24,000 nt of DNA from an uncultured Faecalibacterium sp. (GTDB taxonomy: Bacteria; Bacillota; Clostridia; Oscillospirales; Ruminococcaceae): positions 15,714 to 39,713 of the forward strand of contig CAYZIL010000019.1 of NCBI GenBank assembly GCA_964478515.1, given 5' to 3'. The notes beneath the pieces are model-generated. The model saw only the letters and a program-made list of their open reading frames with translations, did no database searches and was not told the DNA's origin. Made by a program: the position numbers and the translations under genes. The number at the start of each line of letters is the position of its first letter. The stretch's first letter is position 1. Of the stretch, positions 1-24,000 are shown piece after piece.

Positions 1-75
1 GAAATAGACATATTATTGTATTAAACTGTTTAAGATACTTTTGGATATTGCCGCTTGAGCGCGGCCGGAGGACAT

Positions 76-7877: not shown

Positions 7878-7911
7878 CCGGAGACACTCGCGTGTCTCCG
7901 GTTTTATTTTT
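7878..7911 (+). terminator. Rho-independent terminator of the HPr-like gene
   Basis: CCGGAGACAC (7878-7887), loop TCGC, GTGTCTCCGG (7892-7901), then TTTTATTTTT. Confidence 0.8.
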
Positions 7912-8063: not shown

Positions 8064-8424
8064 GCTGTCGCGCTGATTATCTTTGGCAAAATCTTTGCAT
8101 ATACAATTACCAGGTGGCGCAATCTGCACCGTCGCGGTATTTCTAAGGCTGTACAGGTATACCCGGCAAGCATAATATACGCAGCGCCGCTCATTAGTTT
8201 ATCTGACGAAATTTGCTTGTTCTCATTGGTAAAAATGCTGTATCTGCGAAAAAAGTAGAAAGTAGAAGAAAGCCGTGACTGATTTTTTCCGCACATCAAT
8301 TGCATTTTTCTGGAAAATGTACCCTAATGGCAAATCTTGCCTGCCGGCTGATTTCCCGATTATTTTGTGATAATTGACATATTTTCCGAAAATTTCTCAT
8401 ATATTTTGACCGCAAAACAGGATA

Positions 8425-8453
8425 TTGACATAAAATAGATGCGGTGTTAATAT
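8425..8453 (+). promoter_or_regulatory. Candidate sigma-A promoter of the DeoR/PTS operon
   Basis: Consensus TTGACA (8425-8430), 17-nt spacer, TAATAT (8448-8453). A weaker TTGACA at 8374-8379 lies upstream. TGTTAA-N7-TTAACA (8445-8463) overlaps the -10 and the likely transcription start. Confidence 0.5.
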
Positions 8454-8505
8454 TGTGTTAACAGGAAAGCAAAAGCAAGCAATAACAAGCAAAGGACAAC
8501 AACGC

Positions 8506-9267
8506 ATGTTCCAAATAGAGCGACTGGACGAACTGTACAGGTATATAAGTAAAAACCAGAGCGCCAGCGTGGAAGAGCTCAGCCGCCTGTTTGGCGTTTC
8601 CAAGGTCACCATTCGCTCAGACATTAACGAGCTTGCCAATAAGGGTCTGGTAATTAAGACATACGGCGGCGCCGTTTCGGCCAGCCACAGCTTTTCCACC
8701 GAGATACCTTACGACTCAAAGTATTCTATAAATTCCACTCAAAAGCGGCGCGTCGCCAAGGCGGCGGCCGAAATGATAGAGGATAACGACGTCGTCATAC
8801 TTGACGCCGGCACCACAACTTTTGAGGTTGTCTCGCACATTACCTGCCGCAACGTCACAATTGTCACTAACGACATACGCATTGCCGCCGAGGTCGCGCA
8901 CCACGGCGGGCTAAAGCTGATTGTGGCCGGCGGCGAGCTTGAAGAGTCGGTCTACACTCTGGTTGGCATGAACACCGAGCGGTTTTTGAGCGAGATACGC
9001 GCCAACAAAGCAATTATGGGCTGCGACGCCTACGACTTGAATTTCGGCATTTCCAACCGCACGCTGTTGGAAGTGTACGCAAAACAGGCAATGATGCGCG
9101 CCGCGGACAAGAAGATAATTATCACAGACAGCTCAAAGCTGGGCAAATGTGTATTCGCCAGAATGTGCGGCCCCTTCGACATGGACGTCTTCATCACTGA
9201 CGCAATGGAACAATCCATGCGCGCTCAAATGGAAGAAGCCGGTGTCGAGGTGCTCATTCCGGAATGA
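8506..9267 (+). CDS. DeoR family transcriptional regulator
   Basis: N-terminal HTH (RLDELYRYISKNQSASVEELSRLFGVSKVTIRSDINELANKGLVIKTYGGAV) plus a DeoR C-terminal sugar-phosphate sensor domain (ILDAGTTT...TNDI...GG). ATG 8506 gives 253 aa. GTG 8455 would lie upstream of the predicted transcription start. Confidence 0.85.
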   Translation: MFQIERLDELYRYISKNQSASVEELSRLFGVSKVTIRSDINELANKGLVIKTYGGAVSASHSFSTEIPYDSKYSINSTQKRRVAKAAAEMIEDNDVVILDAGTTTFEVVSHITCRNVTIVTNDIRIAAEVAHHGGLKLIVAGGELEESVYTLVGMNTERFLSEIRANKAIMGCDAYDLNFGISNRTLLEVYAKQAMMRAADKKIIITDSSKLGKCVFARMCGPFDMDVFITDAMEQSMRAQMEEAGVEVLIPE

Positions 9268-9327
9268 ATATAGCGACCGCGGGATAAACGGCCGCGACGA
9301 TCCTAACTACCAGAAAGGAGGATGGTC

Positions 9328-9636
9328 ATGGGTGACAAGGTTGTAAGCATTCTCGTTGCTTGCGGTTCCGGCGTTGCCACAAGTATGCATGTCGGCTCGG
9401 TCATTAAAGATTATATGAAAGAGCAGCACCTGCGTGTGGAGATAGACGGCACAAGCATCAACAACCTACCGTTCCGTCTCATTGGAAAAGATCTTATAGT
9501 ATCTTCGGCCCAAGTTCCGTTTGAGACGGGATTGCCGGTATTCAACGGTATTCCTATACTGACAGGTATAGGGCAGCAAGAGCTCCTTGAAAAGATTGCA
9601 GACAAAGTCAGGGAGCTGTCGGAAGCGAAGGAATAA
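9328..9636 (+). CDS. sgcB: PTS EIIB component, galactitol/ascorbate-type (SgcB/GatB-like)
   Basis: ILVACGSGVATS phospho-cysteine loop, DLIVSS and PVFNGIPILTGI, which match my memory of E. coli SgcB. GGAGG at 9317-9321 sits 6 nt before ATG 9328. Confidence 0.8.
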   Translation: MGDKVVSILVACGSGVATSMHVGSVIKDYMKEQHLRVEIDGTSINNLPFRLIGKDLIVSSAQVPFETGLPVFNGIPILTGIGQQELLEKIADKVRELSEAKE

Positions 9637-9686
9637 CTCTGTTTCTTTGCAAACTCTTTCTTCCCACAATTTTGAGGAGGTAACCA

Positions 9687-10952
9687 ATGCAAGTAATTAC
9701 TGCAGTAAGTGATTTTCTAAGAAGCCTTGGCGCATCCGTTCTCATCCCGATCATCATTATGATCATCGCACTCGTTCTGGGCGCCAAATTCCAAAAAGCC
9801 CTTGTCGCCGGCTTGACTTTCTCCGCCGGATACATCGGCCTGAACCTGGTCATCGGCTTGATGCTCACGACAATAACCCCGATGTGCAACATCATCATGG
9901 ATTATTTCGGAGCCAACAAGACCATTCTCGACGTGGGCTGGCAGGTAGGCGCGTCAATCGCCTACAGCACCACTTGCGGCGCGCTGATAATCATCGTCTC
10001 GCTGGCGGTTAACATTATCATGCTGCTGCTCAAGGCCACCAAGACCATCAACGTCGACATCTGGAACTTCTGGAACCACGCTTTCACCGCGTCGGTCGTC
10101 TACATCACCTCCGGCAGCCTGGTATTCGGCCTCATCGCCGGCGCCATCCATGCCGCGCTGTGCCTGATTATTGCCGACCTGACCGCCAAGAGAGTACAGG
10201 AATTCTACGGCATCCCCGGCATCTCCATTCCTCACGGCTGGTGCGTCACCTCTGTGCCCATCATCCTCGGTGTCAACTGGCTGCTTGACCGCATCCCCGG
10301 CGTCAAAAACATCGTCTGGGACGAGAAGAAGATTCAGGAAAAATGGGGCATCTTCGGCAACCCGCTGGTGCTCGGCACTGTTCTCGGCCTTATTCTCGGA
10401 CTGCTGGCCGGCTACTACAAAGACATCCCTCTGCTGCTCCAGTCCGCGTTCACCATCGGCGCTGTCATGCTGATACTCCCGCGCTTCATCGGACTGTTCA
10501 TGGAGTCGTTGAGCGTCGTTTCCGAGGCTGCCAAGGGCTTCATGGCCAAGCACTTCCAGGGCCGTGAGTTCTACATCGGCCTTGACTCCGCGGTTCTGAT
10601 CGGCCATCCGATCACCGTCGCGGCCTCCCTGATTCTTATTCCCATCGTTATTCTGCTGTCCGTCTTCCTGCCCGGCAACCAGGTCCTTGCTTTCGGCGAC
10701 CTTGCCTCGCTTGCTTACTTCGTAGCGATGGTCCCCTGCTTGAGCAACGGCAACCTGTTCCGCTCGGTCATCTGCGGCGCGGTCATCATGACTGTCGTTC
10801 TTTACCTGTGCACCTCCTTCGGCGGTGCTCTTACCGCTATGGCCCTGCAGGCCGGTTATTCGCTGCCCGAGGGCACGTCTGACATAACCGCTCTGTCCGC
10901 CGGCAACTGGATCACCTGGGTAATGTTCCAGATTTCTAAACTATTTGCCTGA
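9687..10952 (+). CDS. sgcC: PTS EIIC component, galactitol family (GatC/SgcC-like permease)
   Basis: 421-aa polytopic protein. The motifs VDIWNFWNH, GIPGISIPHG, GREFYIGLDSAVLIGHP and PGNQVLAFGDLA track the GatC family (EIIC-GAT) along its whole length. GAGGAGG RBS at 9674-9680. Confidence 0.9.
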   Translation: MQVITAVSDFLRSLGASVLIPIIIMIIALVLGAKFQKALVAGLTFSAGYIGLNLVIGLMLTTITPMCNIIMDYFGANKTILDVGWQVGASIAYSTTCGALIIIVSLAVNIIMLLLKATKTINVDIWNFWNHAFTASVVYITSGSLVFGLIAGAIHAALCLIIADLTAKRVQEFYGIPGISIPHGWCVTSVPIILGVNWLLDRIPGVKNIVWDEKKIQEKWGIFGNPLVLGTVLGLILGLLAGYYKDIPLLLQSAFTIGAVMLILPRFIGLFMESLSVVSEAAKGFMAKHFQGREFYIGLDSAVLIGHPITVAASLILIPIVILLSVFLPGNQVLAFGDLASLAYFVAMVPCLSNGNLFRSVICGAVIMTVVLYLCTSFGGALTAMALQAGYSLPEGTSDITALSAGNWITWVMFQISKLFA

Positions 10953-11092
10953 GTGGAGTAATTTTACTCTCAGGCGCCTGATCACTTAAGATGTGCGGAT
11001 GCTTCTATAGTGTCTTACTTGGACCGGACGCTGTTTTAGCATCCGCACAATTTACAGCCTTTTTTAGGTTCGCAGAACGTTTTTTCGAACCT
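10948..11092 (+). other. Highly structured intercistronic RNA region (three hairpins)
   Basis: Hairpin 1: 10948-10974, 5+6 bp with a 3-nt bulge, spanning the EIIC stop. Hairpin 2: TGTGCGGATGC (10992-11002) pairing with GCATCCGCACA (11039-11049), with T6 at 11060-11065. Hairpin 3: AGGTTCG (11066-11072) pairing with CGAACCT (11086-11092). Confidence 0.6.
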
Positions 11093-11113
11093 GCATACAG
11101 GAGCAACAACGAA

Positions 11114-12124
11114 ATGAAAGCTGCCGTTTATTATACTAACAGCGACGTGCGTGTTGAGGACCGGCCCGACCCGCGCCCAGAAAAAGGCGGCCTGGTAGTT
11201 AAAACCGAGTGCTGCGGCGTTTGTGTGGCCGATACCATGGAATGGTACAACAAGCCCAAAGCGCCGATAGTTCTCGGCCACGAGGCTACCGGCGTCGTCA
11301 CCGAGCTGGGCGAGGACACCGTCGGCTTCAAAGTCGGCGACCGGGTTTTTGCCCACCACCACGTTCCCTGCATGACCTGCGACGAATGCCGCCGCGGCCG
11401 CTACACTCTTTGCCGCACTTTTAAAAGCACCCGCTACGACCCGGGCGGATTTTGCGAATATTTTGCTCTGAGCGCCCGCAACGTGGCTGAGGATACTCTG
11501 CTGTTGCCCGAAAACGTCGCTTTTGACGAGGGTACGCTTATTGAACCGCTCGCCTGCGTGATACACGCGGTGCGCCGCATGCACATACGTCCCGACGACA
11601 ACGTAGTTATTGTCGGCGCCGGCACCATAGGGTTAATGTTCGTGCAGGTGCTGCACGCTTACGGCGTCAGCGACATTAATGTTTTCGAGCGCATAGACTG
11701 GCGCCGCGACAAGGCCGCCGAATTCGGAGCCATCGTCTGGGACGACGCCAACAAATATATCAGCGAGCGCAAGGGCGCAAACAAAGTACTTGTCATAGCC
11801 AAGGACATTTCCGCAATGGAGCTGGGGCTTTCGGCCGCAGGTACCGGCGCAGACGTGCTTTTCTTCGCCACGCCCGCCGACGACGAATATTTAAAGTTCT
11901 ATGTCAGCAAAGCTTTTTTCAAGGAAATGCGCATCGTCCTTTCCTATTCCGCCGACCACAACGACACTCGCGAGGCGCTGCGTCTGATCGGCTCCGGACT
12001 GGTAAAAGTGCGCGATTACATCACGCACCGCTATTCCCTGTCCCAGCTTGCCGACGCCATCGCACAGACCACGGCGCGCGGCAGGTGTCTTAAATGTATT
12101 ATAGATATGAACCTTGAGTACTGA
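11114..12124 (+). CDS. Zn-dependent medium-chain dehydrogenase (polyol / polyol-phosphate dehydrogenase-like, GatD/sorbitol-DH family)
   Basis: Catalytic-Zn motifs CGVC and GHEATG, structural-Zn motif CMTCDECRRGRYTLC, Rossmann motif VVIVGAGTIGLM. AGGAG lies 11 nt before ATG 11114 (336 aa). The track start at 10991 would translate through the hairpins. Confidence 0.85.
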   Translation: MKAAVYYTNSDVRVEDRPDPRPEKGGLVVKTECCGVCVADTMEWYNKPKAPIVLGHEATGVVTELGEDTVGFKVGDRVFAHHHVPCMTCDECRRGRYTLCRTFKSTRYDPGGFCEYFALSARNVAEDTLLLPENVAFDEGTLIEPLACVIHAVRRMHIRPDDNVVIVGAGTIGLMFVQVLHAYGVSDINVFERIDWRRDKAAEFGAIVWDDANKYISERKGANKVLVIAKDISAMELGLSAAGTGADVLFFATPADDEYLKFYVSKAFFKEMRIVLSYSADHNDTREALRLIGSGLVKVRDYITHRYSLSQLADAIAQTTARGRCLKCIIDMNLEY

Positions 12125-12141
12125 GAAAGAGGGTATGCCCA

Positions 12142-12885
12142 GTGGCATTTGAAATTGACCTAAGCGGACAAGTCGCGCTAGTTACCGGCGCAGTTACCGG
12201 TATTGGCAAGGCTATTGCCAAATCGATAACGCAATCCGGCGCACAGGTAATTATTAACGACATAGTCGCGCCCGACTCCGACGCCGCGCTGAAAACTCAA
12301 GACGAGCTCGCCGCCTTCGGCCCGCGCCCGCACTACGAGCAGTGCGACATTTCCGACGAGACAAAGGTCAAGGCGATGATTGCCAACATCGTCGACACCT
12401 ACGGCCGTCTTGACATGCTCGTCAACAACGCGAGCATCGTAGCCAACTTCCAAAAAAGCTACGACGTGAACACTATGGGTACGTATTACTGCATGCAAAG
12501 CGCCATTGAAGAGTTGGTAAAGACACAAGGGCGCATCGTCAACATCACCTCAGCCTCGGTTTTTTCCGGCGGCACGGGTTACCCGGAATACAACGTCACC
12601 AAAGCCGGTATCTACGCGCTGACGCTGTTTTACGCGCGCAACTACGCCAAAAAAGGCGTGCGTGTCAACGGAATTGCTCCGGCGGTTATTATGACCGACA
12701 TGACCGTAAAACGTTTTGGCAGCGAGCAGGCCATGCTCGACCACTACAAAGACGTCATGCCTATGGGCCGCGTCGGTTACCCCGAGGACATTGCCGGTAC
12801 GGCGCTGTTCCTCATGTCCGACATGTCCCGCTGGATGACAGGCGAGGTACTGATTGTTGACGGCGGCCGCATGCATATAGGCTAA
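12142..12885 (+). CDS. Short-chain dehydrogenase/reductase (SDR, FabG/gluconate-5-DH-like)
   Basis: TGAVTGIGKAIA cofactor motif, NNAS, and the catalytic motif YNVTKAG (YxxxK). GTG start with GAGGG upstream. Confidence 0.85.
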   Translation: MAFEIDLSGQVALVTGAVTGIGKAIAKSITQSGAQVIINDIVAPDSDAALKTQDELAAFGPRPHYEQCDISDETKVKAMIANIVDTYGRLDMLVNNASIVANFQKSYDVNTMGTYYCMQSAIEELVKTQGRIVNITSASVFSGGTGYPEYNVTKAGIYALTLFYARNYAKKGVRVNGIAPAVIMTDMTVKRFGSEQAMLDHYKDVMPMGRVGYPEDIAGTALFLMSDMSRWMTGEVLIVDGGRMHIG

Positions 12886-12920
12886 AGTCTTTTTACCGCA
12901 ACAAATAAAAGGAGAAAAAT

Positions 12921-14006
12921 ATGGACACTAAACTGTTAAAAGCGCTCACAGAAGTTCCCGCCATCAGCGGCCGTGAAGACCTGCTGATAGCCGACGTTTC
13001 AAACAAACTTAAGGCCTACACCGACGACGTTCACATAGACCGGCTCGGCAACGTAACCGCGACGTTCGCGGGCAAGCCCGGCGCCCCGTCTATAGCCTAT
13101 TTTGCCCATCTTGACGAGCTGGGTTTGATAGTGCGCCGCGTCGAAGAAAACGGTTTTCTGCGCATTGAGCGCATGGGCGGCGTGCCGGAAAAAGCGCTGC
13201 TTTGCACCTTTGTCGAAGTCTTCACTATCGACGGCAGCAAGCGGTACCCCGGCGTCGTCGGCACCTGCTCGCACCATCTGACGCCTGCTGACAAGAAGTT
13301 CGCCGTTACCACTACTGCAGAGCTGTACGTCGACATCGGCGCCGGCAGCAAGGCGGAGGTTGACGCCATGGGCATCGGCACCGGCAGCGTAATTACCTAT
13401 CGCCCCAATTTCAGTGAAATAGGCAAATACATCGCCTCCAAAACTCTTGACGACCGCATGGGAATTTATGTGCTGCTCAAACTGGCCGAGCACCTCAAGG
13501 CAAACGCACACGAGGCCACCGTTCACCTCATCTGCTCAGTGCAGGAAGAGTCCAACGTGCGCGCGTGCACACCCTGCTTTACCCGCCTTGCTCCCGACGC
13601 CGCCATCTGCGTTGACATTTCGCCCGCGTGCGACACGCCCGAGCTGAAGGGCCGCTACGACATGGCGCTGGGCGCCGGTCCGGCCGTTATGTACTACAAC
13701 TTCCACGGCCGCGGCACGCTCGGCGGACTGCTCGCCAGTCCCAAGCTCTGCGCTTACCTCGAAAAAACGGCTGTCGACAACGGCATCCCCTTCCAGCGCG
13801 AGGTCGTAATCGGCGTCGTCACCGACGACGCGTTTACCCAGTTTACTGGCACGGAAGGCATCCCCATGGGACACATATCCATCCCCATGCGCTACAGCCA
13901 CTCCCCAACGGAAATGTCCTCTCCCGAAGACATTGACAATACCGTCAAACTCGTCTGCGAGAGCGCCATGCGCTTTAGCGCCAAAGTAGACCTTTCCCGC
14001 GGTTAG
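12921..14006 (+). CDS. sgcX: M42 family metallopeptidase-like protein (SgcX/FrvX/YpdE group)
   Basis: AISGRE, FAHLDELG, LDDRMG, SVQEE, AICVD and RYSHSPTE reproduce the M42 metal-ligand pattern. AAAGGAG RBS. Same family as the 'peptidase' genes found in E. coli PTS operons. Confidence 0.8.
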   Translation: MDTKLLKALTEVPAISGREDLLIADVSNKLKAYTDDVHIDRLGNVTATFAGKPGAPSIAYFAHLDELGLIVRRVEENGFLRIERMGGVPEKALLCTFVEVFTIDGSKRYPGVVGTCSHHLTPADKKFAVTTTAELYVDIGAGSKAEVDAMGIGTGSVITYRPNFSEIGKYIASKTLDDRMGIYVLLKLAEHLKANAHEATVHLICSVQEESNVRACTPCFTRLAPDAAICVDISPACDTPELKGRYDMALGAGPAVMYYNFHGRGTLGGLLASPKLCAYLEKTAVDNGIPFQREVVIGVVTDDAFTQFTGTEGIPMGHISIPMRYSHSPTEMSSPEDIDNTVKLVCESAMRFSAKVDLSRG

Positions 14007-14044
14007 AATACAAACCAAGAACGCATAAAAAGGAGACTTTAACC

Positions 14045-14857
14045 ATGAAATGGACAGAACAGACACTGGGAACCGATAAGCCCATCATCGCCATGTGCCA
14101 CCTGCGCGCGCTGCCTGGCGACCCTTACTTTGACAAAGCCGGCGGCATGAAGGGCGTAGTCGAAATGGCCCGCAAGGAAATGCTCGGCTTGCAAAACGGC
14201 GGCGTTGACGCCATCATGTTCTCCAACGAATTCAGCCTGCCCTACTTGACCAAGGTCCGCACCGAGACCGTCGCCGCCATGGCGCGCATAATCGGCGAGC
14301 TCATCCCCGAAATCCGCATTCCCTACGGCGTGAACGTGCTGTGGGATCCGGCGCGCTCGATTGACCTCGCCGTTGCCACCGACGCAAAATTTGTGCGCGA
14401 GATATTCACGGGCGTTTACGCCAGTGATTTCGGCGTGTGGGACACCGACTGCGGCGACGTTATTCGCCACCAGCGCGCAGTCGGCGGCGAAAACGTCAAG
14501 CTGCTGTTCAACATTGTGCCCGAGGCCGCGAAGTACATTCAGCGCGACAATATCTGCGAAATAGCAAAGAGCACCGTCTTCAACTGCCGCCCCGACGCGC
14601 TGTGCGTTTCCGGCCTGACGGCGGGAGTCTCCACCGACTCGCAGGTGCTCAAGTCCGTTAAGGACACCGTTCCCGACACGCTTGTTTTCGCCAACACCGG
14701 CGTGCGCCCCGAAAACGTCGAGGAGCAGCTGCGTATAGCGGACGGCGCCGTAGTCGGCACAACGTTCAAAAAAGACGGAAAGTTTGAAAACCACGTCGAG
14801 GAGGACCGCGTGCGTTCCTTCATGGACAAGGTTAAGGCCTTCAGAAAGGGTCTGTAA
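14045..14857 (+). CDS. sgcQ: BtpA/SgcQ family TIM-barrel protein
   Basis: IIAMCHLRALPGDPYFD, LQNGGVDAIMFSNEFSLPYLTKVR, GVNVLWDP, REIFTGVYASDFGVWDT, NIVPEAA and CVSGLTAG read as near-colinear with my memory of E. coli SgcQ. Confidence 0.85.
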   Translation: MKWTEQTLGTDKPIIAMCHLRALPGDPYFDKAGGMKGVVEMARKEMLGLQNGGVDAIMFSNEFSLPYLTKVRTETVAAMARIIGELIPEIRIPYGVNVLWDPARSIDLAVATDAKFVREIFTGVYASDFGVWDTDCGDVIRHQRAVGGENVKLLFNIVPEAAKYIQRDNICEIAKSTVFNCRPDALCVSGLTAGVSTDSQVLKSVKDTVPDTLVFANTGVRPENVEEQLRIADGAVVGTTFKKDGKFENHVEEDRVRSFMDKVKAFRKGL

Positions 14858-14860
14858 ACC

Positions 14861-15514
14861 ATGCCGGTCATCATTCCCTCGCTGGCGAGTGCGAACCAGT
14901 CCTGTCTGCGCGAGGAAATTACCCGCGTGGACGGCTGGCCCTACCTGCACTTTGATTTTGAGGACGGAAATTTTATTGACAACATCACCTTCGGACTGCG
15001 CACAGTGCGCGACGTGTCGCCCTTTACCGGCGACATGCACCTGGACGCCCACCTGATGATGTGCGATCCCTTCCTCTTTGTCGACGAGCTGGCCGCGCTG
15101 GGTTTTCGTGCCGTGGCAATCCACTACGAAAATCTCGCCTACCCCTCGCTCGCAATCAACCGCATTCACTCTTTGGGAATGCGCGCAGGTCTGGCGCTCA
15201 ATCCGCGCACCAACGCCGCGGATATTGCCCCGTTCGTCGGCGCGGTCGACTACGCATTAGTGATGACCAGCGAACCGGATACGCTGGGACAAAAGTTCCA
15301 GCCCGCCATGCTTGAAAAGATTCGGGCACTGCGCCAGCAGAGCGCCCCCGGGTTTCATATCATGGTCGACGGCGGTATCGGCGCCGACGAGCTGCGGCTT
15401 GTCGGCGCCGCCGGCGCCGACCTCGCCGTGATGGGTCGCGGCGTTTTCAAGAGTGACGATCCCATCCGCTTCCTCAACACCAATTCAGACAACAGGAGCG
15501 AAATATGGTCCTAA
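14861..15514 (+). CDS. sgcE: Ribulose-phosphate 3-epimerase family protein, SgcE-type
   Basis: IIPSLASAN, HFDFEDGNFIDNITFG, DAHLMM, VMTSEPDTLGQKF and MVDGGI. The Rpe metal and catalytic residues (H, D, D, H, D) are retained. Starts 3 nt after the sgcQ stop. Confidence 0.75.
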   Translation: MPVIIPSLASANQSCLREEITRVDGWPYLHFDFEDGNFIDNITFGLRTVRDVSPFTGDMHLDAHLMMCDPFLFVDELAALGFRAVAIHYENLAYPSLAINRIHSLGMRAGLALNPRTNAADIAPFVGAVDYALVMTSEPDTLGQKFQPAMLEKIRALRQQSAPGFHIMVDGGIGADELRLVGAAGADLAVMGRGVFKSDDPIRFLNTNSDNRSEIWS

Positions 15515-15984
15515 AGGATGTTTTGCGCCGCGAGCTCTGCTTTGCCCACCTTTCCGCCGCCGACAATGAAGACATTCTGCGTCAGCTGGCCCGCCAGCTT
15601 TACGCACAGGGTCTTGTCAACGAGGGCTTTGAGGACAACGTAATAACCCGCGAGCACAATTACCCCACCGGACTTCCGGTGGAATGTGAATACAAAGTCG
15701 CCATTCCGCACACCGATGTGCAGTATGTGCTGCACGACCGTGTCTGTGTGGCGACGCTCAACGAGCCGGTCACTTTTGAGTGCATGGGCGACCCCGACAC
15801 AAAGTTGAGCGTCAAGACCGTCATCATGATGGCAATAAAAGAAAAAGACCAGCAGTTGCCGGTGCTAAAGCAGCTCATCAACCTGGTCGTGCGCAACAGC
15901 GAGCTGATAAACCGCCTTGGCGACGCCGCCGACGGCGACGCTATTTACGACGCCATGCTCAGCGTGCTGCCGGAAGATGAGTAA
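15505..15984 (+). CDS. PTS EIIA component (fructose/mannitol/Ntr type, PTS_EIIA_2)
   Basis: REHNYPTGL...KVAIPHT phospho-histidine motif. AGGAG at 15494-15498. 10-nt overlap with the epimerase gene. Confidence 0.8.
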   Translation: MVLKDVLRRELCFAHLSAADNEDILRQLARQLYAQGLVNEGFEDNVITREHNYPTGLPVECEYKVAIPHTDVQYVLHDRVCVATLNEPVTFECMGDPDTKLSVKTVIMMAIKEKDQQLPVLKQLINLVVRNSELINRLGDAADGDAIYDAMLSVLPEDE

Positions 15985-16627
15985 TTTTCGCAACGTAGTT
16001 TTCGACGTCGACGGCACCTTAATAGACACGGAGGACGCCATAGTCGGCGGAATCCTTGCTTTTGCCCGCGCTCACGGCGTTAACGACTACGACTACGATT
16101 ACATCAAAAAGCACTGCTTCGGCGCCGTGCCCCAGGAAGCCTTTGCCCGCATAGGACTGGGCGAATTTTTCGCCGAGGGCAACAGTTTTGTCAACCACCG
16201 CATGTATGTTGAGCGGCGCGCGCGTCTTTACGAGGGCACCGAGCAACTGCTCGCCCAACTTCGTCGGCGCGGCGTCTCGCTCGCCGTGTGTACGGCGCGC
16301 CCCGGTTTCGAATTCGACGTCGACCCGCTTTTTCCGCGCATCGCGCACTATTTCGACGTCGTTATGTCCAACGAGTATGCCGACGAACCCAAGCCCTCGC
16401 CGGCGCCGCTGCAAAAGTATCTTGCCGAGTTTTCGTTAGACCCGTGCGAGGTACTGTATGTGGGCGACGCCGAAACGGACGAGAGCTGCGCCCACGGCGC
16501 CGGCGTCGCCTTCGCGCTTGCCGGCTGGGGAGCGGCCGACCGCTCGCTGCGCCACGAATATTTATTTGAACGGCCCGAGCAACTGCTTAGCGTCTGCGCT
16601 GATGAGCGCGCGGGCCGATTGATTTGA
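15977..16627 (+). CDS. HAD-IA family phosphatase (phosphoglycolate/sugar-phosphate phosphatase-like)
   Basis: Motif I VVFDVDGTLIDT, motif II CTARP, motif IV YVGDAETDESCAHGAG. ATG 15977 overlaps the EIIA stop (ATGAGTAA). Confidence 0.8.
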   Translation: MSNFRNVVFDVDGTLIDTEDAIVGGILAFARAHGVNDYDYDYIKKHCFGAVPQEAFARIGLGEFFAEGNSFVNHRMYVERRARLYEGTEQLLAQLRRRGVSLAVCTARPGFEFDVDPLFPRIAHYFDVVMSNEYADEPKPSPAPLQKYLAEFSLDPCEVLYVGDAETDESCAHGAGVAFALAGWGAADRSLRHEYLFERPEQLLSVCADERAGRLI

Positions 16628-16645
16628 AAGGAGACCGCACAAACG

Positions 16646-17125
16646 ATGTTTGTTGATTACCGCATGGTGGCGATGATGTTCAAGCGCCACGCACTCAAGC
16701 AGGTGGGCCTGGTCCACGGCCTGGGCGTCTCGCACCCAGTTATTCGCAATGTCGACGGCAAATATCAGCTTGCCGCTTTCACTTACGTCACCTGGATGGA
16801 GGGCTACGAAAAAGGCACCATTCCCCGCCCCGACCACTGGATAGCGCTGGATCTCATCAGCGCCGAACTGGTCAAGACATACGACTGCGCCGAGACCGAT
16901 TTTGCCGAAGAGCCGGCCGACACCGCTCTGGCTCTCACAGAAGCGGAAGCGACGCTGGCACCCGACGTTTTCATGACGGTGTACGAGATGCTCGACGTCG
17001 TGCGCAAAAAATACGACGACACCCACGTTATTGACACAGTCGCCTATAATGCCTACATGGAAAAACTGCTGTCGGTCGTCCCTGAAGTTTTGCGGCCGTA
17101 TTACAGCGAACTTAGCAATATTTAG
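16646..17125 (+). CDS. Hypothetical protein, no recognisable family
   Basis: 159-aa ORF with coding-like composition. AAAGGAG lies 12 nt upstream. It is the last gene before the operon terminator and has an acidic central linker (AETDFAEEPADTALALTEAEA). Confidence 0.55.
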   Translation: MFVDYRMVAMMFKRHALKQVGLVHGLGVSHPVIRNVDGKYQLAAFTYVTWMEGYEKGTIPRPDHWIALDLISAELVKTYDCAETDFAEEPADTALALTEAEATLAPDVFMTVYEMLDVVRKKYDDTHVIDTVAYNAYMEKLLSVVPEVLRPYYSELSNI

Positions 17126-17132
17126 TACGTTT

Positions 17133-17160
17133 AAGCCCGCGGCAACGCGGGCTTTTTATT
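17133..17160 (+). terminator. Rho-independent terminator
   Basis: AAGCCCGCG (17133-17141), loop GCAA, CGCGGGCTT (17146-17154), running into TTTTTATT. Confidence 0.85.
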
Positions 17161-17218
17161 AGCGACAATAATTGCCATACAAATAAACGTGAAAAATATA
17201 TCGCAGTGCCTAATTTAG

Positions 17219-17227
17219 TGGTATAAT
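17219..17227 (+). promoter_or_regulatory. Extended -10 promoter for the aldolase-kinase unit
   Basis: TGgTATAAT at 17219-17227, 30 nt upstream of ATG 17258. There is no good -35, as is typical of extended -10 promoters. Confidence 0.45.
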
Positions 17228-17257
17228 TAAAGTATCAAACTGAAAGGAAGACCTATT

Positions 17258-18052
17258 ATGTCCTCTTATCCCAGCAGAAAAGAAGCTGCCGAGCTTATAT
17301 GCGAGATCGGCAAAAAAATGTACATGAAGCAATTCGTCTCCGCTAACGACGGCAATATGACCATCCGCGTCGGTGATGATACTGTCGTCGCCACGCCGAC
17401 AGGTATAAGCAAAGGCGACTTGACCCCGGAAATGCTGCTGCTTTGCAACTTTGACGGCAAGATTCTCGACGGCACCTATAAGCCCACGTCCGAACTGCCC
17501 ATGCACCTGCGCACCTACCGCGAGGACGACAAAATAATGTCCACCGCTCACGCGCATCCCTGCTTCCTCAACTGCATTGCCAACCTCGGCGCCGAACTCG
17601 ACATGGCGCTGACCCCGGCGACCGCGGCAATCTCCGGTCGCATTCCGGTCGTGCCCTACTGCAACCCCGGCTCCGACTCACTGGCCAACGCCGTTGCACC
17701 CTATGTCAAAGATTACAGCATTGTTATGCTTGCCAACCACGGTCCCATCGCCTGGGGCAAAAACCCGATAGAGGCCTGGTACATCCTTGAGGACGCCGAG
17801 GCATACGCAAAGATGGCCGTCATCCAAAAATTCATCATCGGCTCCTACCGCCCCATCAGCAAGGGTCAAATTCAGACTCTGGCCGACACCCACGACTTGA
17901 CCATCAACCCGAAACGGCTCGTAAACGCGCCCGAGTCTACCACCAACACCGAACCCGCCTTCTCGTTTAACGCCATGGACACCGGTGTGCATCTTGACGA
18001 CGCGTCTGTCGAAAAAGTTGCCCGCCGCGTTGCGGAAATACTCGGCAAGTAA
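17258..18052 (+). CDS. Class II (Zn) aldolase/adducin-family protein (fuculose-/rhamnulose-1-P aldolase or ribulose-5-P 4-epimerase-like)
   Basis: NDGNMTIRV, TPTGISKG, PTSELPMH (Glu ligand), TAHAHP (two His ligands) and LANHGPIAWG (His ligand). It has about 50 aa extra at the C-terminus relative to FucA. Confidence 0.85.
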   Translation: MSSYPSRKEAAELICEIGKKMYMKQFVSANDGNMTIRVGDDTVVATPTGISKGDLTPEMLLLCNFDGKILDGTYKPTSELPMHLRTYREDDKIMSTAHAHPCFLNCIANLGAELDMALTPATAAISGRIPVVPYCNPGSDSLANAVAPYVKDYSIVMLANHGPIAWGKNPIEAWYILEDAEAYAKMAVIQKFIIGSYRPISKGQIQTLADTHDLTINPKRLVNAPESTTNTEPAFSFNAMDTGVHLDDASVEKVARRVAEILGK

Positions 18053-18067
18053 ATAAAAGCTACATGT

Positions 18068-18100
18068 GACCCGCCGCTGAGCGCTGCTTTACGGCGGGTC
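18068..18100 (+). other. Intercistronic GC-rich hairpin
   Basis: GACCCGCCG (18068-18076) pairing with CGGCGGGTC (18092-18100), 15-nt loop, followed by the small hairpin GCGGC-gtctttt-GCCGC (18101-18117). Confidence 0.5.
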
Positions 18101-18144
18101 GCGGCGTCTTTTGCCGCAATACCAACTTTATGGAGCACAAACAT

Positions 18145-19614
18145 ATGAAAAAGCAACACTACGCAGCCGTCGACTGCGGACAAAGCGGCGGAAAAATAGT
18201 AGATTTTTCTTTTGACGGCGACAAACTCGTGTACGAAAAAAGTTTTCCCTTTCGCTACGAACCGGTAACTGTGCGCGGCTCGCTGTATGTCGACATTCTC
18301 GGAATGTACGGCATAATGTGCCGCAGCATCGCCGCGCTCGTGCAGGAATTGGGACCCGGCAGCGTCAAGTGCGTTGGCACCACTACCTGGGGCGGCGGCT
18401 ACGCCTTTTTTGACGACCGCGGCCAAATGGTCGGCAACTCTATAAGTCACCGCGACGCCGGCGTCGTAGCGTCAGCTCAACAATTCGGCCTTTTGGTTCC
18501 TGAGCGCGAATACTACAACGCCACCGGCACCCATTTTGCCTCGCACGTCGGCGCAAACATGCTGTTTTTCGACAAGGCGCACTCCGCGGCCTACGAGGCC
18601 GCCTCGTTTTTATTGCCAACTCCCAGCGTTTTTAACTATTTCATGAGCGGCGTCGCTGCCATGGACGAAACTATCGGCACTGCCACCGGCTTTATGAAAC
18701 TCGGCGGCGGCCTGAATACAGCGATACTCGAGCGCACCGGTCTGCGCACCGACTTGCTGCCGAACACGGTAAGCTGCGGCACTAAACTCGGCACGGCGGA
18801 AAAAAGCTTTGCTGAGACAGTCGGTGACAGCGGCATAAATGTCGTTTGCGCTCCGGGGCACGACACAGCCGCCTGTCTGCCGGCCATCCCGGGAATGGAC
18901 GAGCACAGCTTATTCGTCAGCATGGGCACCATGATTCTTTCCGGCATGGAAACTGCCGCGCCCTGCGTGGGTGAGGGTATGTATGCCAAAGGACAGCGCA
19001 CTGTCGCGTCTGTCGGCGAAAAATTTATTTCTTACGGCGACAAACAGGGCTTTTGGATTATGAACCGCTGCCTTGACGATTTCGATCGACGCGGTCTGAA
19101 TACCGACTTTTCCGTTCTCGAACAGGCCGCAGCTAAGCTGCCGTCAGGGCGCTGTGTAATAGACACCAACGACCCGCTGTTCTACTTGGGTGAACGTCCA
19201 ATGCCGCAGCGCATTCGCGAGTATTGCCGCGCCAGCGGACAGTTTGTGCCCGAAAGCGAATTTGACGTCTACCGCTGCTTGATAGACAGCTACACCTATA
19301 ATGTGCTCAGCTCGCTGCGCGGCCTTGCCGAGGCGGGCGAGCGCAAATTTGACAAGATACACCTCGTCAACGGCGGTTGTCAAAGCCCTCTGCTGTGCAA
19401 TACAATCGCCGCCGCCAGCGGCCTGCCGGTCCACTATGGTATGCGCTATGCCAGTGCCGCCGGTAATGTCCTTACGCAGCTGCAGGGCATGGGCGAACTG
19501 AGCGGGCTGAGCGAGATGCGCGCACTCGCTTCTCACTCTTTCGGTATGCAACTGGCCGACGTGCCGCACGACAGTAACTGGGACGACATCTATGCCCGCG
19601 CCGCGTCACTGTAA
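18145..19614 (+). CDS. FGGY-family carbohydrate kinase, rhamnulokinase-like
   Basis: AAVDCGQSGGK (phosphate-1 motif), GTTTWGGGYAFFD, APGHDTAAC, GFWIMNRC and HLVNGGCQSPLLCN, colinear with RhaB-type kinases. GGAG lies 9 nt before ATG 18145 (ATG 18130 is an alternative start). Confidence 0.85.
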   Translation: MKKQHYAAVDCGQSGGKIVDFSFDGDKLVYEKSFPFRYEPVTVRGSLYVDILGMYGIMCRSIAALVQELGPGSVKCVGTTTWGGGYAFFDDRGQMVGNSISHRDAGVVASAQQFGLLVPEREYYNATGTHFASHVGANMLFFDKAHSAAYEAASFLLPTPSVFNYFMSGVAAMDETIGTATGFMKLGGGLNTAILERTGLRTDLLPNTVSCGTKLGTAEKSFAETVGDSGINVVCAPGHDTAACLPAIPGMDEHSLFVSMGTMILSGMETAAPCVGEGMYAKGQRTVASVGEKFISYGDKQGFWIMNRCLDDFDRRGLNTDFSVLEQAAAKLPSGRCVIDTNDPLFYLGERPMPQRIREYCRASGQFVPESEFDVYRCLIDSYTYNVLSSLRGLAEAGERKFDKIHLVNGGCQSPLLCNTIAAASGLPVHYGMRYASAAGNVLTQLQGMGELSGLSEMRALASHSFGMQLADVPHDSNWDDIYARAASL

Positions 19615-19649
19615 AAACAGTACTCACCACGCAACAGAGTTGATATTAT

Positions 19650-19697
19650 TATGCTAGCAACACGGCGCCGCTTATGCGGCGCCGTGTTGCTAGCATA
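19650..19697. repeat. Perfect 22-bp inverted repeat (stem-loop, probable operon-end terminator or RNA stabiliser)
   Basis: TATGCTAGCAACACGGCGCCGC, loop TTAT, GCGGCGCCGTGTTGCTAGCATA, with no mismatch. There is no U-tract on the + strand side. Confidence 0.9.
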
Positions 19698-19875: not shown

Positions 19876-20688
19876 TTGGATTACATTGACTACCACGTTC
19901 ACTCCTTTTACTCCTGTGACTGCACAATGCCGGTGGCGCTGTCCGCCGCCGTCGCTGCCGAGCGCGGGATGGCGGAAATAGCCTACACCGACCACTACGA
20001 CTTTAACCTGCCGCGCTCCATGCCCTGTTTTGACGAGCCCGCCGACATGCAGCGCCGCCGTGACGAGCTGCGCGCCGTCGAGGCAGGATTCGGCGGCAAA
20101 TTAAAAATACGCATCGGCGCCGAACTCGGCGACGGCTGGTACGAACCGCAGCAGGCCGCGCGTTTTGTGCGCAGCAACTATTTTGACTTTGTGCTCGCCA
20201 CCACCCACGGGCTGCGCGGCGGGCGCGATCTTTACTGCTATGCGCCAGAGGGCGCCGACCCCCACGCCCTGCTTGACGAATACTTCGAAACCTACACCCA
20301 CGTCGCCGAATTTACCGATTTTGACTGCATTGGCCACCTGAGCTACGCGGTGCGCAACCTCACCCAGGCTTACGGGGTCAATTTTGACCTGCACAAATAT
20401 TACGACATCTTCCGCGACCTTTTTCGCTGGCTGGTCGAAAACGGCAAGGGACTGGAGCTGAATACTTCCGCGCGCCGTCAGGGTTTTGACTTTACCTACC
20501 CCGACTACGAAATACTCTCGCTCTACCGCGAGCTCGGCGGCGAAATAATTACGGTCGGTTCTGACTCTCATTACCCCGAGCACGTCGCGCTCGGCATAAA
20601 AGACGAAACTGCAATGCTCGCGCAGCTCGGTTTCAAATACATAACCTCTTTTGAAAACAGAAAACCGAAAATGATTAAAATAGAGTGA
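19876..20688 (+). CDS. PHP-domain phosphoesterase (histidinol-phosphatase HisJ/HisK family)
   Basis: N-terminal DYHVHS metal motif, later TDH, GAELG, TTHG, IGHL and GSDSH motifs of the PHP fold. TTG start with AGAGG 7 nt upstream. Confidence 0.8.
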   Translation: MDYIDYHVHSFYSCDCTMPVALSAAVAAERGMAEIAYTDHYDFNLPRSMPCFDEPADMQRRRDELRAVEAGFGGKLKIRIGAELGDGWYEPQQAARFVRSNYFDFVLATTHGLRGGRDLYCYAPEGADPHALLDEYFETYTHVAEFTDFDCIGHLSYAVRNLTQAYGVNFDLHKYYDIFRDLFRWLVENGKGLELNTSARRQGFDFTYPDYEILSLYRELGGEIITVGSDSHYPEHVALGIKDETAMLAQLGFKYITSFENRKPKMIKIE

Positions 20689-20706
20689 GCGCAGCCGCGC
20701 TCACTC
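20683..20706. terminator. Shared hairpin between convergent genes (candidate bidirectional terminator)
   Basis: GAGTGAGCGC, loop AGCC, GCGCTCACTC. The TGA of the PHP gene (20686-20688) and the TGA of the TetR gene (complement of 20701-20703) each sit in one arm. An A-rich run lies upstream and TTTTT lies at 20712-20716. Confidence 0.45.
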
Positions 20707-21255
20707 CATGCTTTTTATAAATTTTTCCGCCTGTTCGGTAAAGCGCCCAGCGTCAAGCCCACCGAGCATCCGCTGTATATTCAGCCCCTCGCCGCACAGC
20801 AGCGTCAACCAGGCCAAAAATTCGGCCGGCTGCTCGCCGCCGCGCTCAGCAATCTTTTCGGTTAACAGCCGTGCAAATTCGGTATAGCGCTCGTTTAGGC
20901 GCGCGCGAATGGGCTCGTTGCCGAGCATGGCGTCGTAAATAAGCTGCATGCGCAGCTCGGCGGCCGTGCTGTCGCGCTCCAGCACATATTTCACCAAGCG
21001 GTGCAGCGAGGTGTCTTTGTTGCTGTCTTCGGTCCAGCGCACCAGGTCGTTCCACTGCTGGTCGAGATAGCGGTCGGTAATGTCGAATATAATTTCGTTT
21101 TTTGTCTTGTAGTGGTAGTACAGCGTTCCCTTTGAAACTCCCGCCGCGCGGGCTATTTCGGCAAGCGATATGTCTGCGAGCGGGCGTTCCGCCAGCAGCT
21201 TTTCGGCACTGTCCAACAATTTTTCGCGGACATTGTCCTTTCTCGGTGCGGCCAT
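20701..21255 (-). CDS. TetR/AcrR family transcriptional regulator
   Basis: N-terminal HTH REKLLDSAEKLLAERPLADISLAEIARAAGVSKGTLYYHYKTKNEI. 184 aa. Divergent from the FAD oxidoreductase gene. Confidence 0.85.
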   Translation of the reverse strand: MAAPRKDNVREKLLDSAEKLLAERPLADISLAEIARAAGVSKGTLYYHYKTKNEIIFDITDRYLDQQWNDLVRWTEDSNKDTSLHRLVKYVLERDSTAAELRMQLIYDAMLGNEPIRARLNERYTEFARLLTEKIAERGGEQPAEFLAWLTLLCGEGLNIQRMLGGLDAGRFTEQAEKFIKSME

Positions 21256-21334
21256 TTATTGTCGCCTTTCTTGTCGTTTTCGCCTATTATAATACCACCG
21301 TTTTGCACTATTTGCCAATATTCCCGCTGCACTA

Positions 21335-21363
21335 TTGACTTGCCTCGCCGCAAAAAATATATT
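21335..21363 (+). promoter_or_regulatory. Candidate sigma-A promoter of the oxidoreductase operon
   Basis: TTGACT (21335-21340), 17-nt spacer, TATATT (21358-21363), within the 160-bp divergent region shared with the TetR gene. Confidence 0.45.
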
Positions 21364-21415
21364 TAATACATCAAGAGTCGCCCGCTTGGCCGACTCGGTT
21401 GCGGGTAGTGGGGCT

Positions 21416-23131: not shown

Positions 23132-24000
23132 ACACATACGACGTTGTTGTTATCGGCGGCGGCCCGGCCGGTCTCGCCGCGGCAATAGCCGCGCACAAAA
23201 AGGGCGCGCGCGTACTGCTGCTTGAGCGCGAGGCGCGCTTGGGCGGCATACTTAAACAGTGTATACACGACGGTTTCGGTCTGGTGCGTTTCGGCGAAAA
23301 GCTTTCCGGCCCCGAATATGCCGAGCGCTTTGTCGACGAATTTCGCGCGCTCGCCATAGACGCACACACGCTGTGCTTCGTCAGCAGCATTAAGCGCACT
23401 GACTCCGGCTTTGACATAACCGCAGTGCAGCGCAGCGGTGTTGAGCATTTTTCGGCGCGCGCGCTGGTGCTGGCAACCGGCTGCCGCGAGCGCACTGCCA
23501 AACAGGTATCAATTCACGGCACGCGTCCCAGCGGTGTCTTTACGGCCGGCACGGCGCAACATTATGTCAATTTGATGGGCCAGCTGCCGACAAAAAAATG
23601 CGTCATTCTCGGCAGCGGCGACATCGGTCTGATAATGGCGCGGCGCCTGACTTTGGAGGGCGCGCAGGTGCTTGGCGTCTACGAGGCAAAGCCGACGCCC
23701 TCTGGTCTGCGGCGCAACATTCGCCAGTGCCTTGACGATTACGACATCCCGCTGTTTTTGTCCCACACCGTCAGCCGCGTTTTCGGCGACGGTCGGCTCA
23801 GCGCGGTGGAAATTAGCCGCGTCGACGACAAGATGCGCCCCATTCCCGGCAGTGAGAGCCGACTGGAGTGCGACGCGCTGATACTGTCTGTCGGACTTAT
23901 TCCCGAAAACGAACTGGCCGAAAGTCTCGGCGTCGAGCTTGACGCCGCCACCCGCGGACCCGTTTGCGACAACACGCTGATGAGTTCTGTTCCCGGCATA
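23128..24000 (+). CDS. NAD(P)/FAD-dependent pyridine nucleotide-disulfide oxidoreductase (partial, 3' end outside the window)
   Basis: Not in the ORF track because no stop is reached. My own translation from ATG 23128 (ATGA overlap with the upstream stop) gives [35 protein letters not shown]...GGIL... and a second fold, [18 protein letters not shown]. The frame is open for 291 codons to the window edge. Confidence 0.85.
   Translation, partial: [291 protein letters not shown]

Follow-up and report, generated by a model that had tools for sequence, protein, structure and literature searches.

A recurrent dehydrogenase-expanded variant of the sgc-type PTS cluster in an uncultured Faecalibacterium sp., with a probable passenger gene and a putative aldolase–kinase module attached

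Do thirteen tightly packed genes that recall the orphan sgc cluster of Escherichia coli encode one carbohydrate pathway, and if so, which? This question is raised by positions 8425-19697 of a 24,000-nucleotide stretch of DNA from an uncultured Faecalibacterium sp. (GenBank assembly GCA_964478515.1, contig CAYZIL010000019.1), which is called the window in the following. An earlier note on this DNA had read the genes, here g01 to g13, as one full catabolic set that adds oxidation, phosphate handling, and C–C cleavage to the components of sgcXBCQAER and may be a more complete version of an undescribed route. Our comparative analysis favors a different division, which we hold with a probability of roughly 0.6: the region would consist of two units, with unit 1 (g01-g11, approximately 8425-17160) being a DeoR-linked phosphotransferase system (PTS) operon of the sgc kind that carries g11 as a passenger, and unit 2 being the pair g12-g13. 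The region is thus best filed as a new, recurrent, dehydrogenase-expanded variant of the already known, uncharacterized sgc-type PTS cluster, with a passenger gene and a separate aldolase–kinase module attached. Our confidence in any substrate class is lower than in this overall picture.

Pfam and NCBIfam profile scans of the 13 products gave 13 intact open reading frames (ORFs), all on the plus strand, and confirmed the families that the earlier note had named. Its junctions (a 3-nt gap at 14858-14860 and overlaps at 15505-15514 and 15977-15984) are exact, and the terminator after g11 and the hairpin of about 22 bp after g13 lie where it had placed them. Eight of the genes form the block on which the main finding rests (coordinates are those of the window):

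9322-9636, plus strand: g02, PTS component EIIB with a Lac/Cel-type fold, Gat family (Pfam PTS_IIB; likely start 9328)
9687-10952, plus strand: g03, Gat-family EIIC (EIIC-GAT 252 bits; TIGR00827 430 against a cut-off of 542)
11114-12124, plus strand: g04, Zn-dependent polyol-type dehydrogenase, Zn-ADH (ADH_N and ADH_zinc_N; the ORF opens at 10991, likely start 11114)
12142-12885, plus strand: g05, short-chain dehydrogenase/reductase, SDR (adh_short_C2 189 bits; no NCBIfam equivalog reached)
12921-14006, plus strand: g06, M42 metallohydrolase, SgcX-like (Peptidase_M42 246 bits)
14045-14857, plus strand: g07, BtpA/SgcQ family (TIGR00259 318.8 against a cut-off of 153.4)
14861-15514, plus strand: g08, ribulose-phosphate 3-epimerase (Rpe) family, SgcE-like (Ribul_P_3_epim 172 bits)
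15505-15984, plus strand: g09, PTS component EIIA of the EIIA_2 type (PTS_EIIA_2 98 bits)

Homologues of SgcQ number at least 7,795 at E ≤ 1e-20, and the best 120 of them, named from Clostridia, Chloroflexi, and Atribacteria, are 71-81% identical. We compared 80 genome loci around SgcQ homologues, taken with 10-kb flanks as the best-scoring of at least 567, using tblastn with the window proteins and our own conservation-weighted ORF calling, followed by all-against-all clustering and assignment of representatives by Pfam and NCBIfam. Pfam-annotated metagenome and genome contexts of the closest SgcQ relatives were added. Conservation-weighted calling was used because longest-ORF calling picked an antisense ORF over the SgcQ and Rpe genes. 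This ORF of 376 aa (14039-15169 of the window, minus strand) lies across the genes for SgcQ and the epimerase and exceeds both in length, an artefact of coding sequence rich in G+C.

The complete run EIIB–EIIC–Zn-ADH–SDR–M42–SgcQ–Rpe–EIIA was found in the same order in a Lachnospiraceae metagenome-assembled genome (MAG; locus L015), a Syntrophomonadaceae MAG (L016), and Lactonifactor longoviformis (L096), the proteins of the latter each being 46-78% identical to those of the window block. A Pelolinea MAG (L036) has the same run with EIIB placed after EIIA, and an Anaerolineaceae locus (L040) has the block in a split form. Variants with a single dehydrogenase around M42–SgcQ–Rpe and a PTS also exist, with only the Zn-ADH in L090 and L092 and only the SDR in L006, L007, L088, and L094, while the locus of Anaerostipes hominis (L008) and the type found in E. 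coli, Enterococcus, Erysipelothrix, and Eubacterium have neither. The EIIC of the window groups with the EIICs of the Zn-ADH/SDR loci, and the clade of SgcC from E. coli and Enterococcus is sister to this group. Seen in at least five other loci that are phylogenetically distant, the dehydrogenase-expanded form is a conserved, recurrent, and horizontally spread variant of the sgc-type PTS cluster. Such presence or absence of dehydrogenases is the pattern that would be expected of substrate adaptors feeding a common core. The presence of two extra dehydrogenases right behind the transporter in a recurrent variant narrows the candidate substrates to reduced carbohydrates that would have to be oxidized after phosphorylation.

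The SDR-only operons end with a gene for a fusion of a GNAT acetyltransferase to a PTS EIIA_2 domain of about 305 aa (L088 6136-7056, L094 13022-13936, L006 13041-13961, and L007 13017-13934), and free GNAT-like genes lie near the cluster in L015 and L040. The L. longoviformis locus (GCA_900129135.1, FQVI01000031.1) comes from a cultured gut isolate, and its core is preceded by genes for a PRD-type regulator, EIIA, HPr, Enzyme I, and a Cof-type phosphatase. The locus is thus a PTS island complete in itself and suited to experiments, and the presence of a window-type core in a cultured organism makes the question experimentally testable.

Following the block, the window continues with a phosphatase gene that overlaps the EIIA gene:

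15977-16627, plus strand: g10, HAD-IA phosphatase of the haloacid dehalogenase (HAD) superfamily (HAD_2 100 bits; DVDGT and GDAETD motifs, which are HAD motifs I and IV; start 15977 in independent gene calls)

Of the 82 loci, 31 have a phosphatase of one kind or another (HAD-IA, Cof-type, MtnX-like HAD, or inositol monophosphatase, IMPase) within 6 kb of SgcQ, as do most Firmicute PTS-type operons; this addition recurs in kind, not by orthology. The neighborhood comparison seeded on SgcQ, which the earlier note had proposed, thus recovered the ADH, the SDR, and a phosphatase of some type as recurring additions, in agreement with its view that oxidation and phosphate handling were added to the E. 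coli-type cluster, but neither a g12-type aldolase nor a g13-type kinase.

SgcQ itself is the most striking member of the core. Its identity is 68-81% in a comparison that takes in Bacillota, Chloroflexota, Atribacterota, Desulfobacterota, and E. coli, with operon partners at 28-69% in the same loci, an unusually strong constraint for a protein for which we found neither a solved structure nor a published enzymatic function. A profile search of the PDB with SgcQ gave nothing significant, and the literature on SgcQ, the BtpA family, M42 proteins with PTS, and SgcX/FrvX/YpdE yielded no functional characterization. The AlphaFold2 (AF2) model of g07 is a (beta/alpha)8 barrel (pLDDT 88), and its nearest relatives in Foldseek are PcrB/GGGPS, the KDPG and KDPGal aldolases, thiamin-phosphate synthase (ThiE), and PRAI, with generic TM scores of 0.51-0.61; we take these folds to be phosphate-binding barrels. 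Invariant His, Asp, Glu, and Cys residues, among them C18, H19, D55, E62, D101, E119, H142, and E160, are scattered along the SgcQ sequence, and Gly-rich motifs occur in its C-terminal third. SgcQ is probably an enzyme acting on a phosphorylated carbohydrate, with a predicted TIM barrel of the phosphate-binding kind. The cyanobacterial photosystem I biogenesis factor BtpA belongs to the same Pfam family (PF03437), but g07 reaches only 143 bits against the BtpA equivalog cut-off of 400, compared with 319 against 153 for the BtpA/SgcQ subfamily, and its genomic context is carbohydrate catabolism and not photosynthesis. Conserved across phyla while its partners diverge to 30-60%, SgcQ is an attractive target for function assignment.

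The M42–SgcQ–epimerase core is modular and widespread in Bacillota, Chloroflexota, Atribacterota, and Proteobacteria. Among the 82 loci, 18 have a PTS EIIC and 45 an FGGY kinase, the most frequent neighbor, at a distance of up to 6 kb from SgcQ, so that 62 loci have either one; the window is the only locus that pairs both. An Rpe-like gene is present in all 18 PTS-type loci and, except for the window, in no kinase-type locus. A peptidase-family hydrolase accompanies SgcQ in 44 of the 82 loci, namely M42 in 29 (among them 16 of the 18 PTS-type loci), M29 in 10, and a gamma-glutamyltranspeptidase (GGT) in 5, the latter usually with an acetamidase. The three families alternate beside SgcQ (for example at 7-10 kb of L050, 7-10 kb of L047, and 5-10 kb of L045), with an XylB-like kinase and an IMPase or HAD phosphatase as common partners.

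The alternation between a PTS and an FGGY kinase has a precedent in known pathways. Uptake with phosphorylation relies on a PTS in ula and on a transporter combined with the FGGY kinase LyxK in yia; a metal hydrolase, a phosphate-binding TIM barrel, and 3- and 4-epimerases then lead to xylulose-5-phosphate. The SgcQ neighborhoods resemble ula/sga and yia/sgb in this logic, with a PTS or an FGGY kinase, then a metal hydrolase, a barrel enzyme, and epimerases, and AraD-type 4-epimerases adjoin SgcQ in L040 and L065. However, the UlaD/SgbH, UlaE, and UlaG families are not among the profile matches listed for the 13 products, g07 matched BtpA only, and the best AraD/UlaF-type score of g12 was 94 against a cut-off of 251. 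With BtpA, SgcQ has a family of its own, and M42 differs from the lactonases of the metallo-beta-lactamase fold. We see here an analogy in a possible mode of working, not membership.

How close is the window to E. coli sgc? Since the 1990s, sgc has counted as an orphan cluster in E. coli. BLASTP of the E. coli K-12 sgc region proteins (b4300-b4305 and b4565) against the window proteins (E ≤ 1e-3) gave 68% identity over 268 aa for SgcQ and g07 (E = 2e-138), 40% for SgcC, 39.5% for SgcE, 38% for SgcX (E = 1e-79), 35% for SgcB, and 24% for SgcR, and no match of SgcA to the window EIIA. The claim that every sgc component type is present therefore stands by type, with the Gat-family PTS, M42, SgcQ, the Rpe-like epimerase, and a DeoR-type regulator as common core, whereas the EIIA/SgcA and DeoR/SgcR pairs correspond by component type without orthology demonstrable from the alignments. 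Complement and order are not identical to those of E. coli: the gene order differs, the Zn-ADH, SDR, and HAD genes are added, g11 is inserted, and the aldolase–kinase unit is appended. As the earlier note had held, the substrate and pathway of sgc are still unestablished as of July 2026, and sgc deletion mutants grow normally on 190 Biolog carbon sources (PMC13343008). The cluster is induced in nitrogen-containing slow-growth conditions, a pattern that was interpreted as a state marker and not as substrate induction (PMC13343008). Further papers name sgc merely as a putative PTS or isomerization operon.

The 3' end of the region, in contrast to the dehydrogenases, does not recur in relatives:

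16646-17125, plus strand: g11, a 159-aa protein of no known family (without Pfam or NCBIfam match)
17133-17160, plus strand: predicted intrinsic terminator at the end of unit 1, AAGCCCGCG-GCAA-CGCGGGCTT followed by TTTTATT
17219-17227, plus strand: putative extended -10 element TGGTATAAT, read off the sequence, 31 nt 5' of the g12 start codon
17258-18052, plus strand: g12, class II aldolase family, FucA-like (Aldolase_II 142 bits)
18130-19614, plus strand: g13, FGGY kinase of the rhamnulokinase branch (TIGR02627 182 against a cut-off of 528; likely start 18145)
19651-19697, plus strand: perfect hairpin of about 21-22 bp 3' of g13, without a T-run

The predicted terminator, with a stem at 17133-17154 of nine pairs, seven of them GC, and a T-run, was among the two best in the scan, and together with the extended -10 element it separates g11 from g12. 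None of the window-type relatives has g12-g13; in L097, EIIA is the last gene of the cluster, and the next gene, of the HxlR type, is encoded on the other strand. With the tail g11-g13 absent from window-type relatives and a predicted terminator before g12, the reading of the 13 genes as one co-conserved, full catabolic set is not supported.

No counterpart of g11 was found by tblastn in the 80 related loci. That g11 is a spurious ORF was rejected: although a word-index search matched only g11 itself, a HMMER search found 167 representative homologues, some of them stand-alone proteins and others fusions with Barstar, GrpE, or SseB domains, and the AF2 model (pLDDT 91, pTM 0.87) shows a confident fold with one N-terminal helix, a beta-sheet, and three C-terminal helices. 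Foldseek with this model found no match among solved structures (best E = 0.17, TM ≤ 0.30) and one uncharacterized siphovirus protein at TM 0.65. The fusions to Barstar, GrpE, and SseB suggest no metabolic role. The gene g11 is real, belongs to an undescribed orphan family, and is probably a passenger outside the pathway.

The pair g12-g13 has a different background. The kinase g13 has a single close homologue at 56% identity, all others being at most 31% identical and the named ones among them actinobacterial rhamnulokinases, and this homologue adjoins a 76%-identical homologue of g12. Their locus contains a PfkB gene, a GatZ_KbaZ-like gene, two xylose-isomerase-like barrels, a ribose-type ABC transporter, and Gfo/Idh/MocA oxidoreductases, whereas SgcQ, M42, and PTS genes are absent from it. 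The recurrence in a sugar locus of a non-sgc type points to a mobile two-gene module, so that g12-g13 would be an independent ketose kinase plus class II aldolase that landed beside unit 1. Single-linkage clustering had merged g13 with the FGGY kinases adjacent to SgcQ, but orthology was rejected at 20-22% identity and at most 61 bits: in NCBIfam, the latter are XylB-like (306-354 bits) and g13 is RhaB-like. Likewise, in L040 and L065, SgcQ adjoins class II aldolase-family genes that encode AraD-type 4-epimerases (L040 272 against 251) and are not orthologues of g12.

As an adjacent kinase–aldolase pair, g13 and g12 resemble RhaB/RhaD and FucK/FucA, and their membership in the FGGY and Aldolase_II families (Pfam) holds. 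The best solved relatives of g12 are fuculose-phosphate aldolases, and a Glu and three His positions, which we take to be metal ligands by comparison with FucA and its Glu-type ligand, read as conserved. However, g13 misses the rhamnulokinase cut-off (182 against 528, TIGR02627), g12 misses those of FucA_Meth (95 against 250), RhaD (59 against 170), and of its best NCBIfam match, which is OtnC-like (115 against 250), and the window has no isomerase of the RhaA/FucI kind. A dihydroxyacetone phosphate (DHAP) shunt consists of a kinase, an isomerase, and a class II aldolase. In extraintestinal pathogenic E. coli, the tRNA-leuX island ends in a DHAP-shunt cluster for the use of 5-deoxy-pentoses, which adjoins the yjh and sgc clusters (bioRxiv 10.1101/2023.08.10.552779). 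If that shunt has the composition just given, its position beside sgc echoes the aldolase–kinase pair of the window, which is probably a coincidence.

The active-site motifs that we checked in unit 1 are intact. The EIIB has its Cys in the motif ACGSG, the EIIA its His in AIPH, the Zn-ADH both its catalytic and its structural zinc motif, and the phosphatase HAD motifs I and IV. Among solved structures, the Zn-ADH comes closest to a ketose reductase and sorbitol dehydrogenases, with GatD lower down the list at 98 bits. Aligned to 4wwv, g06 matches the H, D, EE, D, and H positions, which we take to be the metal and catalytic residues of M42. Although g08 belongs to the epimerase family and is 39.5% identical to SgcE, it stays below all equivalog cut-offs, with 134 against 376 (PRK08005) and 156 against 213 (rpe).

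On this basis, the two-unit reading would work as follows. Under DeoR control, transcription would run from about 8425 through g11, and the PTS would import and phosphorylate a sugar alcohol or a similarly reduced carbohydrate. The two NAD(P)-dependent dehydrogenases, the Zn-ADH of the sorbitol dehydrogenase/galactitol-1-phosphate dehydrogenase class and the SDR, would oxidize it to a keto-sugar phosphate, M42 and SgcQ would carry out steps common to all sgc-type systems, and the Rpe-like enzyme would bring the product by 3-epimerization into the pentose-phosphate or the hexulose-/hexose-phosphate pool. The HAD phosphatase may be an accessory, serving as a relief valve or in a final dephosphorylation. 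Separately, g12-g13 would act on a free ketose via its 1-phosphate and aldol cleavage. In this scheme, the choice of a polyol as substrate, the reaction order, and what M42, SgcQ, and HAD would do are inferred, while gene content, families, conservation of the eight-gene block, the unit boundaries at the sequence level, and the non-conservation of the tail are direct observations.

Several points weigh against this reading. Every NCBIfam equivalog cut-off was missed except that of the BtpA/SgcQ subfamily, and the sequence names no substrate, as the earlier note had already stated. The only pointer to a polyol is the family resemblance of the dehydrogenases, and the SDR and the Zn-ADH could also act on sugar acids or unphosphorylated sugars. 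A pure polyol route gives no explained role to the apparently intact, aminopeptidase-type metal site of M42. Co-transcription, promoter, and terminator are predictions. The 80-locus sample is rich in MAGs, and gene calling was our own heuristic, combined with single-linkage clusters. Finally, g12-g13 adjoin the cluster in three of three independent assemblies of the species, and a functional link of the pair to the cluster is possible.

The latter point belongs to the original idea that all 13 genes form one pathway, in which oxidation would be followed by the M42, SgcQ, and epimerase steps, dephosphorylation by HAD, re-phosphorylation at C1 by the RhaB-like kinase, and cleavage by the class II aldolase to DHAP and an aldehyde. 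The tight packing on one strand in the three assemblies would fit, as would the HAD gene (immediately) upstream of the tail g11-g13, class II aldolase-family genes adjoining SgcQ in L009, L010, L040, and L065 and HAD genes in five other loci, and the rank of the FGGY kinase as the most frequent SgcQ neighbor. We nevertheless consider a single pathway unlikely, because g11 is set apart from g12 by a strong predicted terminator and an extended -10 element, window-type relatives lack the tail, the pair recurs only in the locus without SgcQ, M42, and PTS, and the supposed parallels are of another kind, the aldolase-family neighbors in L040 and L065 being AraD-type (272 against 251 in L040, against 94 for g12) and the SgcQ-adjacent kinases XylB-like. 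More improbable still is an ordinary, known polyol PTS for galactitol/tagatose or, as in Listeria and Lactobacillus, for a pentitol, with M42 and SgcQ as irrelevant passengers. The known pentitol PTS routes of Listeria and L. casei combine a polyol-phosphate dehydrogenase with Rpe, and the Zn-ADH and Rpe of the window would fit this logic as a general family resemblance. The likeness to the gat operon lies in the Gat-family EIIA, EIIB, and EIIC and in a Zn-dependent polyol-phosphate dehydrogenase that would work directly on the PTS product, with GatD among the solved relatives of the Zn-ADH. A gat system, against which the earlier note had asked for a check, was rejected, since the NCBIfam cut-offs were widely missed (GatD, NF007642, 120 against 550; GatC, TIGR00827, 430 against 542; GatB 42 against 95; GatA 56 against 139) and no product of 8425-19697 matches GatY/GatZ (class II FBA/GatY, GatZ_KbaZ) or tagatose-6-phosphate kinase (PfkB), whose place is taken by M42, SgcQ, and the Rpe-like epimerase. 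Rpi and transketolase are also absent from the locus. Nor do M42, present in 16 of 18 PTS-type loci, and SgcQ, which at 68-81% is far more conserved than its partners, look like passengers.

What M42 does is addressed by another explanation, in which SgcQ-linked systems act on nitrogen-containing sugar or polyol conjugates joined through an amide or amine bond, such as aminoacyl, gamma-glutamyl, opine-like, or Amadori-like compounds, M42 acts as an amidohydrolase, and the dehydrogenases act on the polyol part. It is compatible with the two-unit reading and would account for the alternation of three unrelated peptidase or amidase families beside SgcQ in 44 of 82 loci, for the metal and catalytic positions that g06 appears to retain, and for the GNAT–EIIA fusions at the end of SDR-only operons. 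The induction of E. coli sgc in nitrogen-containing slow growth and the lack of a phenotype on 190 carbon sources would also agree (PMC13343008). However, this evidence is wholly indirect, no deaminase, aminotransferase, or deglycase was seen in the locus, the induction pattern was read as a state marker in the same paper, and clan MH-type enzymes can serve non-peptidase roles, so that we regard a conjugate as a doubtful candidate. A broader form of this idea is more speculative again: SgcQ, a phosphorylating step by a PTS or an XylB-like kinase, and M42, M29, or GGT would together constitute a widespread, undescribed route for sugar- or polyol-amino conjugates, the window version serving the reduced (polyol, opine-like) form, with M42 as a C–N hydrolase and SgcQ as a new TIM-barrel enzyme on a phosphorylated intermediate. 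If true, E. coli sgc would thereby gain a function, and by extension one could be proposed for the PTS–peptidase clusters frv and ypd.

Returning to the two-unit reading, its putative control elements lie at the 5' end of unit 1 and between the EIIC and Zn-ADH genes:

8381-8393, no strand: candidate DeoR operator, near-perfect palindrome ATTTTCCGAAAAT
8425-8453, plus strand: promoter-like site, TTGACA-17-TAATAT with a TG extension (10 of 12 matches)
8455-9267, plus strand: g01, DeoR-family regulator (HTH_DeoR 65 bits, DeoRC 153 bits)
10953-11113, plus strand: intergenic spacer between EIIC and Zn-ADH, long and strongly structured

Copies related to the palindrome occur at 8305-8318 and 8362-8374, directly 5' of the predicted promoter of the DeoR gene. 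With up to two mismatches, the palindrome has six matches compared with 1.5 expected, and five of the six are inside 8305-8393. A DeoR operator common to both units was rejected, as the palindrome occurs only 5' of g01 and not 5' of g12. The spacer is 161 nt long, compared with 37-113 nt in relatives, and its minimum free energy of -56.7 kcal/mol is well below that of shuffled sequences (-35.9 ± 3.3 kcal/mol, z = -6.2). It contains a long imperfect hairpin (10987-11054) and a second hairpin (11066-11092), and a search of the whole window, spacer included, found no match to an Rfam family. Judged by its predicted folding, the spacer may be an intra-operon attenuator or an element for RNA processing or stability.

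Independent gene calls on metagenome assemblies of the same contig agree with the gene models and refine the starts of four genes (8506, 9328, 11114, and 18145). The true start of g01 is likely the ATG at 8506, with an independent gene call giving 253 aa.

The flanks of the region are unrelated to it. Upstream (55-6190), there are two GT2 and one GT4-type glycosyltransferase genes and one for an O-antigen-ligase-like membrane protein, and beyond this set a VTT-domain protein and a strong terminator (7878-7901). Downstream (19876-24000), a HisJ-family PHP phosphatase, a divergent TetR regulator, and a GlpA-like glycerol-3-phosphate dehydrogenase set follow, and on a longer contig (L003), the sequence continues after the GlpA-like set with DUF1667 and another FGGY kinase.

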